In this document: one piece after another, positions 7,811 through 15,317 of the stretch
Layout of the letters: every line of letters begins with the position of its first letter
Numbering within the stretch: the first letter of the stretch is position 1
Virus record (IMG/VR): IMGVR_UViG_2681813269_000007
Strand: one strand, 5' to 3'
DNA length: 22,505 nt
DNA from: a virus
Taxonomy: Duplodnaviria > Heunggongvirae > Uroviricota > Caudoviricetes
Notes under the pieces: generated by a model
Databases searched by the model: none
What the model was told of the DNA's origin: nothing
What the model saw: only the letters and a program-made list of their open reading frames with translations
Program-made: the position numbers and the translations under genes

Positions 7811-8137
7811 GCAGCCACCTCGCGCACCGGAATACGGGCAGACAATACCAGGACAAACCGGCTGGCGAACTGGCGACGAGCTTCCCGTTCAGATGACGCG
7901 ATAGTGGAAAGATGATGAATGTGGGACTTTTTGTCTGTGCGAACGACTGCCGCAAATTTGAATTTGAACATGGTATGCACTCCGTTTTATTGGTCGTGCT
8001 ACCTCCAGAGTTGCGAATCTCTTTATTGGTGGTAGCCCAGGCGGGGTTCGCAATACCGGTAAACGAAGAAACCGGCCCGACCGAAGTCAGCCCCACCTGA
8101 GCCACCATAATTCGGATATGCGCAGGTCTATACACAT

Positions 8138-8213
8138 AAAAAAACACGCTGGCGCGTGTTGTGCGCTTCGTTTTGCCAGGATTGCGAAGTCCCGACTGCG
8201 GGATTTACCGCAG
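8138..8213 (-). ncRNA. Candidate small regulatory RNA (c4/cA-like) upstream of the antirepressor operon
   Basis: On the minus strand: -35 TTGACG (8250-8245), -10 TAAAGT (8226-8221), then about 75 nt ending in an intrinsic terminator (ACACGC-GCCA-GCGTGT plus U7, 8159-8138). The predicted RNA has a 5' hairpin CUGCGG-UAAAUC-CCGCAG. No convincing ORF in the region. Confidence 0.3.
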
Positions 8214-8263
8214 CGAGGTGACTTTACCTCCAAAACGACGCACACGTCAATAATTTGCAAAGA

Positions 8264-10166: not shown

Positions 10167-13100
10167 TTACCCATAGAAAGCGCCCTGCTCTTCGTAGCTG
10201 CATGGGCTATTCCCGGTAATGTATTCACGTAACCGCCGCAGTTCATTGCTGGATAAGTGATCCATGAACTCTGTGAGGTACAGAGATGCAAACGTCATAG
10301 CTATGCTGGCTGATGACCATGATGACATAGTGGCCAGCTCCTCACCGGAAAGCGCACTCATCGCCCAGGACTCAGGTACAACCACTGGCAACACAGCCAA
10401 AGCCTCAGAAATTACTGAATGAGGGGCGTTTTGAACCTGCTCGTTTGTGGATCGCGTTTTATCATCCATATATATATTGAGATCCAAATCGCGATCCATT
10501 TCGATGGCGGTCTTCTCGGCTTTACGCGTTTTCAGGGTTAGGCCATCTTTCTGACGCTGAGCAAGAATATCCAGCATAAATGCCGCTGATTCAGGCTCAA
10601 CAAAACGCAAGGTTGGACGCTTATCGCCGTCTCTGCCGCGACGTTTACCTGTTTTAAGGCCAAGAGAGTCGCAAATGTTTTTAAACAACGCTTCCGGCAC
10701 TTTAGGCTTCCCTTTTGGCGTCATAAAACCACCAATGTGCAGAACGTTATTCAACAGGTCACGGCGTTCGGCTGTCATGAGGTTATCTCGAGCAAATTTG
10801 AGACGCTCCTGAGTCGCCTCGCCGGTCATAGTCTCAGGGTTGATACCGCAGTCGATAAAGTACTGCCGGAGAGTTGCTGATTTAAGCGCATAGAAACCGC
10901 GCGCCCCGACTTCAACAGTAGGAGTAGCTTTTACCTTGTGATCGATTATTCCAGGGAATTTAGTTTTAAAGACATCATCAGCCTGCTCGCGAGTCATCGC
11001 GGTCACTACAAAATATTGCCACTGTCCCGCCTGACGGTATGCGTAGGTAAAATTGATGGCTGCTTCTTCCCGGTCGTAACGACGAGCTGTTACCTCATCT
11101 AAAAGCATTGTTTCATAGCGGCGAACTTTGTCTCGAGCACCATCGAAATAGAATTTCAGCGTGCCTTCTTCAACCGGTAGTTTCAGTTCGTTTTCAATAT
11201 CCCAGCGGACAAGTTTTGCCTGTTCTTCAAGCGTCAGCGCGCGTTTTTTTAGCAGTTCTTCACGCTCTGATTCTTGTGGAGTTTCTGTATTGAGATGCAG
11301 ATCCAGTGTCTGTTCCCACACAATATCCCGCGCTTCTTTACGCAGCTCTTTACCGATATCATTCGCAGCATAATCGGTGGCCAGCGGCGATACCTTATAA
11401 CCGTCGCTGTGCATGATGCAGATCATGTTGCTGGCGTAGTCGTTACGCGCAGTCGCTTCAATAGCGGCTGCTTTAATTTTCATCCTGGTAAAGTCGGTAT
11501 TGGCCACCCCCATTGATATACGGTCGCCATCGAAAACGACATCCGTCAGTTCACCGTTCATACCTGCGGTAGCAAGCAATGCCTGGGCGAATGCTCGTTC
11601 TATTTTTTGCGGGTCAGTTTCACGTTTTGCACGAGCTTTATCAAAGCCGATAATAAATTCTTTTGCTGTACGGTCGCGGCGTAGCATTTGCACTGCGTCG
11701 CTGGGTACAACTTCACCACAGAACATGCCGAAATGACGGTCAAAATGTTTTTGCTCAATCGACACGCCGGATGAAATAGACGGGCTATAAATCAGGCCGT
11801 CGTATTTTTTGACCATCTTTTTCGGTTGATTGGTAAATGCTTCAACTTCTGGCTCTGGTTTGTTTTTCTGGTTTACACACAGAAATTTCTTACCAGGAAA
11901 ATGCATTCTCAGGGTGGCTGTCACATCTTCTGCAAAGGTGGAGCTGTCGGTGGCCAACATGATTTTTTCGCCATCCGATACAGCTTTCACCACCTCGGTC
12001 ATGATGCGATCTTTTTCTGTATAAAAAACCCGGATTGGCTCACCTGTTTCGCGGTTGCGAACATCAACAGGTAATTCAATTACGTGGATCTGCAGCCATG
12101 CCGGTAAACCTAGTTCTTCACGGCGTTTCATAGCCAGTTCAGCCAGGTCAACCAGCAGATCGTTCGCATCAGCATCCACCATGATTGGGTGTTGTTCCGT
12201 TCTGGCCAGCGCGTCAATTAGCGTATTGAATACAGCCACCGGGTTTTCCATAGCCCGACCGGAAAGAACGGCACGTAGCCCTTGTGTGGCCTCGTCAAAG
12301 CCAAAATAGTCGTGCTGGCGCATCAACGGTTGCCAGCAGTTTTTAACAATCGAGTTTATGCAGATGGTCAGTTTACTGGCGTATGGAGCCATTTCCTGAT
12401 AGCCAGGGTCCTGATAGTGCAGGATATCGGCTTTTACACCTTTTCCTTCTGTCATCATTTCCCACAGGCCACCAATAAGGGAGACACGGTGAGCAACAGA
12501 GATACCACGTTCTGAGCTATGCATTAATGGTCGTAACAATCCTGTAGATTTGCCGGAACCCATACCAGCACGGACGATGACTATCCCTTGTAGTGATTGC
12601 ACGTACTTCAGGACATCATCGGTCATTACCGAAGTTTCAAAACGCTTATAGGTGATATGTTGAGGGCGTTTATTGGGATCAGTTATGCGTTCGCTGAAAG
12701 AGCGCGGAGCCTGGGCAATACGGCACTTTTTATTCAGGCGACGGGCAATGTGGTCTTTTACCGTAGCGCGATAGATATTTTCCAGTCCCATTTCACGCAG
12801 AACGATGCAGAACATGTTAAATAAATCTGACGGACTGTTAGGAACCGGACAGGTTAGCATGCCTATATCCACCGCTCTCAGCAGCTCTTTGGCAAAAGTA
12901 CGACGGTTATCCCGCTTAATTGTCTTCAGGCGGTTGAGCGTCAGAGATAGCAAATCAGTACCGGTTTTCAGGCGGTTTGCTGTTGTAAATAGTTGACGTG
13001 CGGTTTCACGAAGTCCACGTAGTTTGTGCAGGTCGTTGAAGTCACTGCACTCCATTTGCGGATCGTCTTCAAAAGTTGGATAGACGCAGCGGACATCGTT

Positions 13101-14162
13101 GAATTTCGATAAGATTTCATAGCCAGTCCGCAGGCCGGTATTCCCTTTTCCTTCTGTGGCAGATTTCCGGTCATTATCCAGTGCGCAGGTGATTTTTGCC
13201 GCCGGGTACATGTTTACCAGTTGTTCCACAACATGAACCATGTTGTTAGCGGATACAGCGACAACCACAGCGTCAAAGCGTTTATATTTTTTCGTGGCAA
13301 GCCAGATGGATGCACCAGTAGCAAAACCTTCTGTAACAGCGATGTTTTGCGCCCCTTTCAGCTCACCGATAACAAAGCAGGCACCGACGAAATCGCCGCT
13401 GGTTACTGCGCTGGTCTGGTATTTCCCACCTTGTTTGTCGATTCGCTGCCAACCCACAATACGACCATCGTAACGACCGTCCAGGTGAGCCAGAGGGATA
13501 GCCATATATGTGGTTGGCCCCCGGCTCCATTTCGCACTGTCGTGACTGGTCACGCGACGCACATCACATGAACTAAAAACGTCACGAATACCTTTTTTAA
13601 TCGCATATGGCCATGAGCCGTCTTCAGCCGGAGCATGTTCCCACGCGCTGTGGAATGCCAGCCATCCCAGCAAACGTTCATGGTCCATTTGGTTGTTTTT
13701 CAGGTCATTAATTCGTTTTTGTTCTTCACGGCGACGACGTGCTTCGGCCTGACGTTCTATTCTTTCCCGTTCTTCTTCCGGTTGTGCGACCACGGTCGCA
13801 TTATTCCGTTGTTGCTCACGGCGATATTCAGAAAACAGGAAGGAGAAACCGCTCCATGAGCCAGCATCGCTGCCTTTATGGACGAAGTTAATGAACGGGT
13901 AATCAATCCCTTTGCTGTGTTCCAGCCGGGAGTAAATTTCTACGCGTCCTTTCAGGCTCTTTTCGAGAGCTTCTGGAGATGTTTTATTGTATGAAGAGTA
14001 ACGCTCAACTCCCCCGCGAGGGTTGAGTTGGATGTTGTCGGAACAGGCAGGCCAGTTGATACCAGCCATCTGTGCCAGCTCGGTTAGTTCATCCCGTGCT
14101 GCTTCAATTAGCGAGAACGGATCGCTGCCAAAGCGATCCGCATAGAAATCGTTTAATGTCAT
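10167..14162 (-). CDS. repA: Replication protein RepA (multidomain primase-helicase)
   Basis: 1331-aa ORF, close to the roughly 1324 aa I recall for N15 RepA. Walker A GMGSGKST in the central helicase region. Same orientation and position relative to cB as in N15. Confidence 0.92.
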   Translation of the reverse strand: MTLNDFYADRFGSDPFSLIEAARDELTELAQMAGINWPACSDNIQLNPRGGVERYSSYNKTSPEALEKSLKGRVEIYSRLEHSKGIDYPFINFVHKGSDAGSWSGFSFLFSEYRREQQRNNATVVAQPEEERERIERQAEARRRREEQKRINDLKNNQMDHERLLGWLAFHSAWEHAPAEDGSWPYAIKKGIRDVFSSCDVRRVTSHDSAKWSRGPTTYMAIPLAHLDGRYDGRIVGWQRIDKQGGKYQTSAVTSGDFVGACFVIGELKGAQNIAVTEGFATGASIWLATKKYKRFDAVVVAVSANNMVHVVEQLVNMYPAAKITCALDNDRKSATEGKGNTGLRTGYEILSKFNDVRCVYPTFEDDPQMECSDFNDLHKLRGLRETARQLFTTANRLKTGTDLLSLTLNRLKTIKRDNRRTFAKELLRAVDIGMLTCPVPNSPSDLFNMFCIVLREMGLENIYRATVKDHIARRLNKKCRIAQAPRSFSERITDPNKRPQHITYKRFETSVMTDDVLKYVQSLQGIVIVRAGMGSGKSTGLLRPLMHSSERGISVAHRVSLIGGLWEMMTEGKGVKADILHYQDPGYQEMAPYASKLTICINSIVKNCWQPLMRQHDYFGFDEATQGLRAVLSGRAMENPVAVFNTLIDALARTEQHPIMVDADANDLLVDLAELAMKRREELGLPAWLQIHVIELPVDVRNRETGEPIRVFYTEKDRIMTEVVKAVSDGEKIMLATDSSTFAEDVTATLRMHFPGKKFLCVNQKNKPEPEVEAFTNQPKKMVKKYDGLIYSPSISSGVSIEQKHFDRHFGMFCGEVVPSDAVQMLRRDRTAKEFIIGFDKARAKRETDPQKIERAFAQALLATAGMNGELTDVVFDGDRISMGVANTDFTRMKIKAAAIEATARNDYASNMICIMHSDGYKVSPLATDYAANDIGKELRKEARDIVWEQTLDLHLNTETPQESEREELLKKRALTLEEQAKLVRWDIENELKLPVEEGTLKFYFDGARDKVRRYETMLLDEVTARRYDREEAAINFTYAYRQAGQWQYFVVTAMTREQADDVFKTKFPGIIDHKVKATPTVEVGARGFYALKSATLRQYFIDCGINPETMTGEATQERLKFARDNLMTAERRDLLNNVLHIGGFMTPKGKPKVPEALFKNICDSLGLKTGKRRGRDGDKRPTLRFVEPESAAFMLDILAQRQKDGLTLKTRKAEKTAIEMDRDLDLNIYMDDKTRSTNEQVQNAPHSVISEALAVLPVVVPESWAMSALSGEELATMSSWSSASIAMTFASLYLTEFMDHLSSNELRRLREYITGNSPCSYEEQGAFYG
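13783..13802. other. sopC-like centromere palindrome, copy 1 (inside repA coding sequence)
   Basis: TGTGCGACC-AC-GGTCGCATT. Positions 13785-13800 (TGCGACC-AC-GGTCGCA) are a perfect 7+2+7 inverted repeat with the same GACC-AC-GGTC core as the F sopC SopB-binding site. Confidence 0.6.
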
Positions 14163-14284
14163 TTTTTAGCCATTCCATGCGAATTATGTTTTTTCGGGTT
14201 GAAAAAATCCGCAGGAGCAGCCACAATAAACGCATCTTGAATTGACGGAATCCGTCGCGTTACTGTGGCTGCTTCCTGAAAAGG

Positions 14285-14313
14285 ACCCGAGTTTGCCGAC
14301 TCGGGTTTTTTTT
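14285..14313 (+). terminator. Intrinsic terminator on the strand antisense to the repA leader
   Basis: ACCCGAGT-ttgccg-ACTCGGGT followed by T8, on the plus strand 123-151 bp upstream of the repA start codon. A possible -35 TTGAAA lies at about 14200 on the plus strand. Confidence 0.5.
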
Positions 14314-14407
14314 CGTCTTTTTTCTGCTGCTGTAACCTGAGTCAACCCACAGAACATATGCCCTGCATTAAACCAGATTTACAGCAAACAATAAACCCCG
14401 TATTAAG

Positions 14408-15004
14408 TCATCTACCCTCAACCATGAATGATTTGATCGTTCCGACTATTTGGTGAACAAATTCAAGATCGCTTTTCCTGAAGATGGCTCGTTGTGAGTT
14501 TGTTCCATCCAGATAGTAATTTTCATCATCAAAACGGGCCAGGCGCTGGATAGTGATATTTCCTGCAGTATCACGAACCAGAACATCCTCGCCGGGGACC
14601 AGTTCCAGCGCAGAATCGACCAGGAGAAAATCGCCTGGCTGATAGTTTCCCTGCGTAAGATTGCTGATAGTTAACGCATACACAGTATTGCGCTGGCTGA
14701 TGAATGGCAGGAATCGCTCAGTATTTGGAACCTGTCCCGGCTTCCATTCTTCATCAGGCCCACTTTCAGTTGTGCCAATAATAGGAATGCGATCAGGGTC
14801 ATATTCTGTCCCATATAGCACCCAATGCACTGGCTTGCGTAAGCACTTAGCCAGGGCAATACCTATCTCCAGTGACGGCATTACGTCGCCACGTTCTAAG
14901 TTTTGGACGCCTGCTATAGAGATATCGACAGCCTCAGCAACTTCTCGCAACGTCAGCTTCATCTCTAAACGGCGTGCTTTCAGTCGTTCGCCTCGTGTTT
15001 TCAT
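14408..15004 (-). CDS. cB: Prophage repressor CB (CI-like, N-terminal HTH, C-terminal S24-like domain)
   Basis: 198-aa ORF with an XRE-type HTH (LTLREVAEAVDISIAGVQNLERG) and a LexA/CI-like C-terminal fold (GDFLLVD ... ITIQRL). Divergent from cro across an operator region. Confidence 0.85.
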   Translation of the reverse strand: MKTRGERLKARRLEMKLTLREVAEAVDISIAGVQNLERGDVMPSLEIGIALAKCLRKPVHWVLYGTEYDPDRIPIIGTTESGPDEEWKPGQVPNTERFLPFISQRNTVYALTISNLTQGNYQPGDFLLVDSALELVPGEDVLVRDTAGNITIQRLARFDDENYYLDGTNSQRAIFRKSDLEFVHQIVGTIKSFMVEGR

Positions 15005-15026
15005 ACTGTAATCATAAATGATCTTC

Positions 15027-15068
15027 TTATAGCTGGCTATAAAATTTATTTATTATAGCTGGCTTTAA
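15027..15068. promoter_or_regulatory. Paired operators in the cB-cro intergenic region
   Basis: TTATAGC-TG-GCTATAA (15027-15042) and TTATAGC-TG-GCTTTAA (15053-15068) are 26 bp centre to centre, followed by TATAAT at 15084-15089. Confidence 0.6.
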
Positions 15069-15095
15069 TTGTTATTTATTGTTTATAATAACAAC

Positions 15096-15317
15096 ATGAA
15101 ACCAGAAGAACTTATTCGCCACTTTGGCAGTGTTGAAAAAGCAGCGGCAGGGGTAGGTGTAACACCCGGAGCTGTTTACCAATGGTTAACCGCTGGAGAG
15201 ATTCCTTCATTGCGGCAAAGCGATATTGAAGTTCGTACTGCTTACAAGCTGAAGAGTGACTTTACAACTCGGCGGGTAAAGCAGTCGATTAAGGAGAGTC
15301 GTAAGCGTGGAGCTTGA
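15096..15317 (+). CDS. cro: Cro-like repressor
   Basis: 73 aa from ATG 15096 (MKPEELIRHFGSVEKAAAGVGVTPGAVYQWL..., an HTH). The ORF track extends to a TTG at 15069 that lies inside the operator, so the shorter start is preferred. Confidence 0.7.
   Translation: MKPEELIRHFGSVEKAAAGVGVTPGAVYQWLTAGEIPSLRQSDIEVRTAYKLKSDFTTRRVKQSIKESRKRGA

Follow-up and report, generated by a model that had tools for sequence, protein, structure and literature searches.

Putative antisense RNA control in the repA leader of an N15-like linear phage-plasmid

The repA control region

The window analysed in this study, the whole stretch of 22,505 nucleotides (nt) of the virus record IMGVR_UViG_2681813269_000007, is according to its sequence an N15-like linear phage-plasmid, whose repA control region is located at positions 14163-14407. 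A megablast search with positions 13900-15100 returned Escherichia phage YDC107_1 (99.2% identity), PhiR46_1 (97.8%), N15 (77.8%) and ϕKO2 (77.7%), and records carrying the 291-nt leader number 14 among phages and 214 among plasmids, mostly from Klebsiella and Escherichia. The genes are arranged in the order repA (minus strand), cB (minus), cro (plus) and Q (plus), which is the order of genes 37-40 of N15, and the control region lies between the cB-type gene and repA. Over its first 391 residues the repA product is 82% identical in amino acids to N15 gp37; in plasmid records it is annotated as "plasmid replication protein, CyRepA1 family". The following features are relevant for the analysis:

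10167-14162, minus strand: repA, 1331 codons, multidomain replication protein, homologue of N15 gp37, start codon at 14162-14160 (list of open reading frames)
14408-15004, minus strand: cB-type prophage repressor gene, 198 codons, upstream of repA on the same strand, homologue of N15 gene 38 (list of open reading frames and homology)
14356-14395, minus strand: repA promoter PL with -35 TTTATT (14395-14390) and -10 TTTAAT (14372-14367), predicted start at about 14360 (pairwise mapping of U45242)
14356-14371 and 14379-14394: operator-like sites OL1 and OL2, overlapping PL (pairwise mapping of the U45242 annotation)
14167-14179, minus strand: repA ribosome-binding region, sense CAUGGAAUGGCUA (maps onto the ribosome-binding site at positions 23-35 of U45242)
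14199-14227, plus strand: Pinc-type antisense promoter with -35 TTGAAA (14199-14204), a 17-nt spacer and -10 CACAAT (14222-14227), predicted start at about 14234 (promoter scan)
14278-14313, plus strand: terminator T1, core CCCGAGT (14286-14292)/ACTCGGG (14299-14305) followed by T8 (14306-14313) (terminator scan)
14234-14313, plus strand: predicted countertranscript of about 80 nt, consisting of an unpaired 5′ tail (about 13 nt), one stem-loop and the terminator stem-loop (fold)
14212-14278, minus strand: leader hairpin with an invariant 3′ arm (14212-14233) and a variable loop and 5′ arm (14236-14278)

The N15 immB record (GenBank U45242; 1996) already contains, at the homologous position, the feature "Pinc; promoter of putative antisense RNA" with its -35 and -10 boxes. 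A hairpin of this record is labelled "putative terminator of RNA antisense to repA transcript" and also "putative terminator of repA leader transcript", while its ϕKO2 homologue is annotated as a "putative bidirectional" terminator. Also listed are "PL; putative promoter of repA gene" and its operators OL1 and OL2. When the record was aligned with the window, all promoter hexamers of U45242 (Pinc, PL) proved to be unchanged there. The two modules thus share the position between cB and repA, the hexamers, the 17-nt spacer, the terminator and PL. They differ by a 43-nt recognition stretch, which is about 50-65% identical, by a 1-nt deletion near 14186, by the Shine-Dalgarno (SD) sequence, which at 14172 is GGAAUGG in the window and GGAAAGG in N15, and by OL1 and OL2, which retain the TA-N10-TA frame while their sequences deviate from those of N15. 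The SD polymorphism is accompanied by a synonymous change in repA codon 2 at 14157 (ACA versus ACC), and with the two changes together a helix of 4 bp (AAUG/CAUU or AAGG/CCUU) around the start codon is preserved; this is not general, the leader L028 having AAC.

On the basis of these matches, the window element is the homologue of a known N15 feature, and the antisense idea was already published about 30 years ago. In N15 the antisense feature itself is annotated as "putative" only; the name "Pinc", taken by itself, suggests an incompatibility phenotype. A literature search disclosed no experimental test of the N15 antisense RNA, the primary N15 papers being beyond the reach of this search. 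Potentially new may be the comparative anatomy of the region and a predicted switch composed of an SD-mimic, an anti-SD and the SD region, both of which are predictions.

Antisense promoter and terminator

For comparison with other N15-like elements, 18 distinct leaders collected by RepA protein similarity or BLAST were aligned. With pattern scans of contigs from viruses and metagenomes, the collection of distinct variable segments grew to 28; a scan of genome contigs gave only one extra locus.

The antisense promoter matches the consensus at nine of 12 positions on the plus strand. It owes its credibility to its conservation and to the N15 annotation rather than to the motif score: both hexamers are invariant in the 18 leaders, none of which had been fetched by its promoter sequence. 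The possible promoter which the initial annotation had placed about 80 nt before the terminator is indeed present as TTGAAA-17-CACAAT, but with nine matches it does not stand out from chance when taken alone (see below).

The strong terminator oriented against repA that had been proposed initially was confirmed, with a stem at 14286-14305 and the T8 run extending to 14313, and also its distance to repA was correct (124-151 nt upstream of the ATG at 14162). Counting the A/T extension, the scan reported a hairpin of 16 pairs with a 4-nt loop, followed by CGTCTTTTTT. The loose terminator definition used in the scan is not enriched (two hits versus 2.8 expected in shuffles), T1 being far stronger than the minimum. 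On the sense side (minus strand) the tail is much weaker (UCCUUUUC). The window, N15 and ϕKO2 have an identical terminator CCCGAGTTTGCCGACTCGGG with its T8 run, which lies about 80 nt downstream on the antisense strand.

The leader hairpin and the predicted countertranscript

A second long dyad consists of the halves GCAGCCACA (14217-14225) and TGTGGCTGC (14264-14272); a repeat search gave arms at 14216-14229 and 14260-14273, which are 93% complementary. Its left (plus-strand) arm overlaps the -10 box and is located upstream of the predicted antisense start. The countertranscript would thus contain the loop and the right arm but not the left one, and a complete hairpin is possible only in the repA leader. 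Hence, the dyad which had been noticed initially exists, but its left arm had been placed about 11 nt too far to the right (the hairpin spans 14212-14278), and it is not a hairpin of the countertranscript, to which only the right arm belongs.

All 28 variants form the leader hairpin, with energies of -24 to -40 kcal/mol and a mean z of -5.9 relative to shuffles of the variable part, and the fold of the 230-nt sense leader has an energy of -81 kcal/mol (z = -5.7). RNAalifold, applied to a MAFFT alignment of 16 leaders, did not recover the hairpin because indels in the variable arm were misaligned; for this reason we relied on folds of the single sequences and on shuffles. An attempt to assign the dyad to a strand by the asymmetry of G.U and A.C pairs looked promising in the window and N15 and was then given up, the mean energies of the two strands being about equal over the 28 variants.

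The 80-nt plus-strand RNA folds at -30.1 kcal/mol (z = -4.0), an energy reached by none of 200 shuffles. The architecture of tail, stem-loop and terminator is common to the 16 printed variants, with a predicted single-stranded 5′ tail of 11-13 nt able to base-pair with the leader hairpin in its apical or internal loop. Across the 28 variants the body of the countertranscript folds better on the plus strand than its complement, with weak z values (-0.7 versus +0.5). An Rfam covariance search of positions 14100-14450 gave no gathering-level match (CopA, RNAI, FinP, C4 and others); the best score (NsiR1, 26.4 bits versus a threshold of 39) reflects a resemblance of the terminator. The countertranscript is separated from the repA start codon by 72 nt and does not cover the ribosome site. 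Since this site is outside its complementarity, the RNA would have to act indirectly.

Conservation among N15-like leaders

Two blocks of the region are nearly invariant. From the repA ATG through Pinc (14163-14235) 88% of the positions are invariant, and within the terminator block (14279-14325) 92%. When the window type is compared with the other types, both blocks show 93-94% identity, whereas the four-fold degenerate sites of repA are 0.36-0.52 identical (about 43%) in the same comparisons. Set against these diverged sites, the invariant blocks argue for selection on the control region. Of the 43 nt between the blocks (14236-14278) only 14% are invariant, with an identity of 49%, and nevertheless none of the 28 variants has lost the hairpin. 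In the otherwise variable 5′ leader there are two conserved islands, GCTGCT and TCAACC, which are complementary to the invariant positions 14216-14222 and 14197-14202, respectively.

Diversifying selection on the variable module was considered and only partly borne out. For example, L023 and L024 are 0.77 identical in this module versus 0.94 at synonymous sites. The module diverges faster than four-fold sites in only 15 of 66 pairs, mostly close ones, and in deep comparisons it is no more diverged than these sites. The pattern may hint at diversifying selection or an exchange of modules.

PY54-type and other distant relatives

The comparison was extended to PY54 and P840, whose RepA proteins are 50% identical to that of the window, to the Salmonella plasmid pAR-0403 (53%) and to seven IMG/VR elements. 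Despite the lack of any nucleotide similarity to the window, these relatives exhibit the same layout, i.e. a sense promoter about 200 nt upstream and an anti-repA terminator about 110-135 nt upstream of the ATG. A -10-like sequence (TACAAT or TAAAAT) resides within one arm of a dyad whose other arm and loop are variable, and at a distance of 17-18 nt a -35-like sequence (TTGCGC or TTGCAC) is situated within a second small hairpin. Where the -10 sequence TACAAT is changed to TAAAAT (C to A), TTGTAG in the other arm is changed to TTTTAG (G to T). A further compensatory change affects the terminator stem, which is CCGGT/ACCGG in one group and CCGGA/TCCGG in another; CCACAATAAAC/GTTTATTGTGG in N15 corresponds to CTACAATCAAC/GTTGATTTGTAG in PY54. 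The PY54 terminator has kept the U-tract on the antisense side and has none on the sense side, and P840 likewise. As PY54 manages without a sense-side U-tract, we regard termination on the antisense side as the conserved function.

In two PY54-type leaders, L121 and L127, about 37 additional nt are inserted between terminator and leader hairpin (some 90-130 nt upstream of repA), and the pairing of mimic and anti-SD still closes around the insertion. VP882 possesses a similar dyad (CTCTACACAAC/GTAGTGTAGAG) and a hairpin flanked by A/T, with a promoter match that, judged by eye, amounts to only 8 of 12 positions. In ϕHAP-1 the antisense strand contains a promoter-like site and a hairpin, but there is no dyad. 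Both phages lend weak support to a shared layout.

Altogether, the proposal of the initial annotation that a short countertranscript complementary to the repA leader explains these elements gained support, since promoter, terminator and leader match elements annotated in U45242, are nearly invariant in N15-like elements and recur as a layout in PY54-type elements. We think that a countertranscript is probably made and represses repA, albeit with a considerable margin of doubt.

A possible Shine-Dalgarno switch

The way in which an RNA that leaves the ribosome site uncovered could lower RepA synthesis was modelled with the following further elements:

14168-14185, minus strand: element S, the SD region pairing with element A, sense AAUUCGCAUGGAAUGGCU (duplex energy)
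14206-14222, minus strand: element A (anti-SD), sense GGCUGCUCCUGCGGAUU, base of the 3′ arm of the leader hairpin and its flank (duplex energies and opening costs)
14189-14207, minus strand: small A/U hairpin UUUUUUC-AACCC-GAAAAAA between elements A and S, overlapping the antisense -35 box (folds)
14326-14347, minus strand: the conserved islands of the 5′ leader, reading GCTGCT (14326-14331) and TCAACC (14342-14347) on the plus strand (alignment)

The small A/U hairpin occupies a position equivalent to that of the PY54-type hairpin T2, which also overlaps the antisense -35 box.

According to the model, the repA mRNA would start at the CB-repressed promoter PL (about 14360) and would have a leader of about 198 nt. 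The opposite-strand promoter (14199-14227), which looks constitutive, would yield the RNA of about 80 nt (14234-14313) that ends at the terminator and is complementary to the middle of the leader. In the free leader, the hairpin at 14212-14278 would sequester GGCUGCUCCUG, leaving the ribosome site open. The 5′ tail of the countertranscript would pair with the apical region of this hairpin, followed by the loop, the 5′ arm and the terminator hairpin, by which the leader hairpin would be opened. The released 3′ arm with its flank (anti-SD, 14206-14222) would then pair with the SD region (14168-14185), so that the ribosome site would be closed and RepA synthesis lowered. The variable stretch of 43 nt would decide on the recognition between countertranscript and leader and thereby on incompatibility specificity.

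Duplex energies are in line with this model. The A:S duplex was calculated at -18.2 kcal/mol for the window and -18 to -20 kcal/mol for the window type, whereas shuffled A sequences gave -9.5 ± 2.6 kcal/mol and only 0.6% of them reached the value. Release of the 3′ arm from the hairpin makes the SD region harder to open: the cost is 10.6 instead of 0.8 kcal/mol in the window, and 9-13 instead of 2.1-3.0 kcal/mol in N15, ϕKO2 and L018.

In PY54-type elements three segments can be discerned: M, an SD-mimic between the terminator and the 5′ arm and within the antisense target; A, the anti-SD directly 3′ of the hairpin; and S, the SD. In the window type, the base of the hairpin's 5′ arm (CAGGAAGCAGCC) takes the role of M. 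The PY54-type pairings M:A and A:S are mutually exclusive. Cognate M:A duplexes have an average energy of -11.0 kcal/mol, as compared with -7.8 kcal/mol for non-cognate ones and -7.1 ± 2.3 kcal/mol for shuffles, and the preference is block-diagonal across three sub-lineages; PY54 has UUUCCGC/GCGGAAA where L121 has UUUCGCC/GGCGAAA. For A:S the average is -12.0 versus -6.9 ± 2.1 kcal/mol (shuffles). In unconstrained full-length folds of four Salmonella-type leaders, blocking of the antisense target increased the cost of SD opening from 3.1-4.1 to 10.7-13.3 kcal/mol.

We therefore tentatively suggest occlusion of the SD region as the mode of action, a model which may well turn out to be wrong even if the countertranscript is made. 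With slightly greater reserve, we suppose that all hairpin-ended (telomere) phage-plasmids of the group of N15, PY54 and pAR-0403, possibly also VP882, might share a hitherto undescribed device for RepA control, in which the -10 box is embedded in the 3′ arm of the leader hairpin, the antisense RNA frees an anti-SD and a freely evolving module of loop and 5′ arm sets the incompatibility specificity of elements residing in one cell. In such a device the countertranscript would cover the loop, the 5′ arm and the SD-mimic, and never the 3′ arm.

Evidence against the proposed control

Several observations weigh against an antisense control of this kind. The transcript and its start site are predicted from sequence, and RNA production, inhibition and ribosome-site occlusion, like the phenotype, are inferred. 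The promoter site alone is not above chance (three matches versus 4.1 expected), and the long hairpin cannot be assigned to a strand by pairing asymmetry, which favours sense in 16 of 28 variants. In PY54, P840, L118 and L120 the minimum-energy fold of the free state has the SD closed, and the shift caused by the switch is small. Constrained folds of full-length N15-type leaders, in which the antisense target was merely kept unpaired, showed no change in SD accessibility. In these folds the released 3′ arm pairs with the islands of the 5′ leader (14326-14331 and 14342-14347) instead of the SD region. We discount this outcome, as pairing with the islands seems unlikely across a rigid duplex of 80 bp, which is a steric argument and not a result.

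The strongest restriction concerns the relative weight of the two controls. CB binds to OL in N15 and ϕKO2, represses repA and lowers the copy number (PMC4997575, PMC4488713), and inactivation of CB raises the copy number of N15 vectors from about 5 to about 50 (PMC2847241). The CB repressor is thus the main control of copy number, and since it dominates, an antisense RNA can constitute at most a second layer. For the countertranscript copy control put forward in the initial annotation this means that the predictions open to a test by sequence hold, whereas its action would be indirect and secondary to CB at most, and that the complete dyad hairpin belongs to the repA leader.

Alternative explanations

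The alternative that competes best assumes no functional countertranscript at all. The hairpin at 14286-14305 would be a bidirectional terminator or attenuator of the sense transcripts from cB and PL, and its plus-strand face as well as the promoter hexamers would be by-products. This agrees with the "leader transcript" and "bidirectional" labels in the N15 and ϕKO2 annotations, with the tails following the hairpin on the sense strand (UCCUUUUC in the window, CCUUUUUU in Klebsiella types) and with the unremarkable score of the promoter. However, it is on the plus strand that T8 is perfect, the sense-side tail being poor, and PY54 and P840 lack a U-tract on the sense side altogether. Moreover, N15-, PY54- and Salmonella-type elements all have promoter-like boxes spaced by 17-18 nt at the corresponding position, no change of the -10 box occurs without a change in the segment it pairs with, and a single fold of the predicted RNA is common to the variants examined. 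We consider this alternative unlikely.

Somewhat less probable still is a countertranscript that acts by RNA decay or transcriptional interference without any refolding of the ribosome site. A perfect duplex of 80 bp is a substrate of RNase III, and PL and Pinc are convergent, with the terminator lying in between and the predicted starts about 125 bp apart. Such convergence or cleavage would leave unexplained why mimic, anti-SD and SD form a conserved, covarying triplet and why the hairpin arm that is not covered is invariant. Decay and SD occlusion are compatible, as the 3′ cleavage product could fold into the closed form.

Translational coupling through a leader peptide, similar to tap-repA of R1, appears very improbable. 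Here the countertranscript would block a short open reading frame (ORF) starting with A/GUG at 14235, whose translation would be needed to open the repA site. The start codon indeed lies exactly at the 5′ boundary of the antisense complementarity, and the N15-type ORF (25 codons) ends with a UGA that overlaps the repA AUG (AUGA), indels being compensated within each class. The frame, however, is not conserved: the ORF extends 56 nt into repA in the window and 35 or 56 nt in ϕKO2 types, is in frame with repA in the Salmonella plasmid and in PY54 terminates 11 nt before repA. Chance alone would produce an open frame of about 22 codons in roughly one of three cases, the window ORF has no recognisable SD, and the block is invariant even at third codon positions, indicating that the constraint is not on a protein. 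Owing to the different frames and stop positions among lineages, R1-type coupling was rejected. In the window this frame forms an ORF of 43 codons (14104-14235, minus strand), whose AUG is placed at the boundary of the antisense complementarity and which reads through the repA ribosome site.

Even less can be said for attenuation as in pT181 or pIP501, in which pairing would stop the polymerase before repA at the leader hairpin followed by U6 (14202-14207) or at the PY54-type T2 with its U-run. Although UUUUUU follows 4 nt after the long hairpin, and PY54 has a terminator-like sense hairpin with U8 just before the SD (the Salmonella plasmid one of 9 pairs), antisense pairing with the 5′ arm would block the hairpin and relieve termination, which is the wrong sign; in L116, L117, L118, L120 and L123 the U-run is 5-6 nt away from the T2 stem, no upstream segment able to pre-empt T2 was found, and an antisense-dependent terminator could not be constructed, so that this mechanism was rejected. 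A pseudoknot between loop and SD of the ColIb-P9 type was excluded, the loop being hypervariable and the SD region invariant.

Comparison with known countertranscript systems

The CopA/CopT system of R1 employs a cis-encoded RNA of about 80-90 nt that is complementary to the rep leader tens of nt upstream of the rep start. As in R1, the ribosome site of the rep gene is uncovered here, the effect would be indirect and a second, transcriptional repressor exists (CopB in R1, CB here). Neither a sequence relationship nor an Rfam relationship to R1 was detected, though, and R1 uses the tap leader peptide, whereas a conserved leader ORF is not supported here. CopA has two stem-loops and forms a kissing loop, in contrast to the N15-type RNA with its predicted single-stranded 5′ tail.

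In pT181, pIP501 and pAMβ1, refolding of the leader induced by the antisense RNA creates a transcription terminator. Binding of the 5′ part of the leader, mutually exclusive pairings and the freeing of an inhibitory segment are common to these plasmids and to the SD switch proposed here, but the inhibitory structure predicted for the latter closes the SD region and does not form a terminator. The systems of ColIb-P9 and IncB plasmids with their Inc RNA require an activating pseudoknot, in which the target loop pairs with a site close to the rep SD, and in addition a leader peptide. The resemblance consists in a small "Inc" RNA that targets a stem-loop of the rep leader and blocks rep translation at a distance; the pseudoknot geometry, however, is excluded in the N15-type leader. 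By its sequence relationships the window element is a member of the N15 Pinc/repA-leader module and not of the R1, ColIb-P9 or pT181 kind, to which it is similar only in outline.

Neighbouring and additional features

In its cB-cro operator region (15010-15068) the window hardly differs from N15, OR3 (TTATAGCTGGCTATAA) being the same in both, while the OL sites differ markedly from those of N15. The combination of nearly identical cB-cro operators and divergent OL sites hints at the same immunity specificity and at a hold of CB on repA that has diverged.

Two copies of the repA locus were encountered in L012/L015 (IMGVR_UViG_3300045988_113976; opposite strands), L040/L042, L089 and some plasmid records. 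They are probably head-to-head assemblies of hairpin-ended linear plasmids and not real duplications.

Elsewhere in the window, two adjoining gathering-level Rfam matches were obtained on the minus strand, C4 antisense RNA at 8025-8112 (82 bits) and isrK at 8139-8214 (53 bits). The pair presumably represents an N15 immA-type anti-immunity region with a small processed RNA controlling the antirepressor operon. A full-length match to IS009 RNA (220 bits) is located at 1669-1867 on the plus strand.

Significance

A countertranscript to repA will not surprise the specialist, the idea being nearly 30 years old for N15. The comparative result provides a mechanism which can be tested by mutations, with invariant promoter and anti-SD blocks flanking a recognition module that is free to vary, and with mimic, anti-SD and SD covarying in the PY54 group. 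N15-like linear phage-plasmids are common in Escherichia and Klebsiella, and the N15 replicon is the basis of the linear cloning vectors pJAZZ (PMC2847241). If the antisense layer works, it would bear on the buffering of copy number in lysogens, on the coexistence of related elements and on the tuning of vector copy number.

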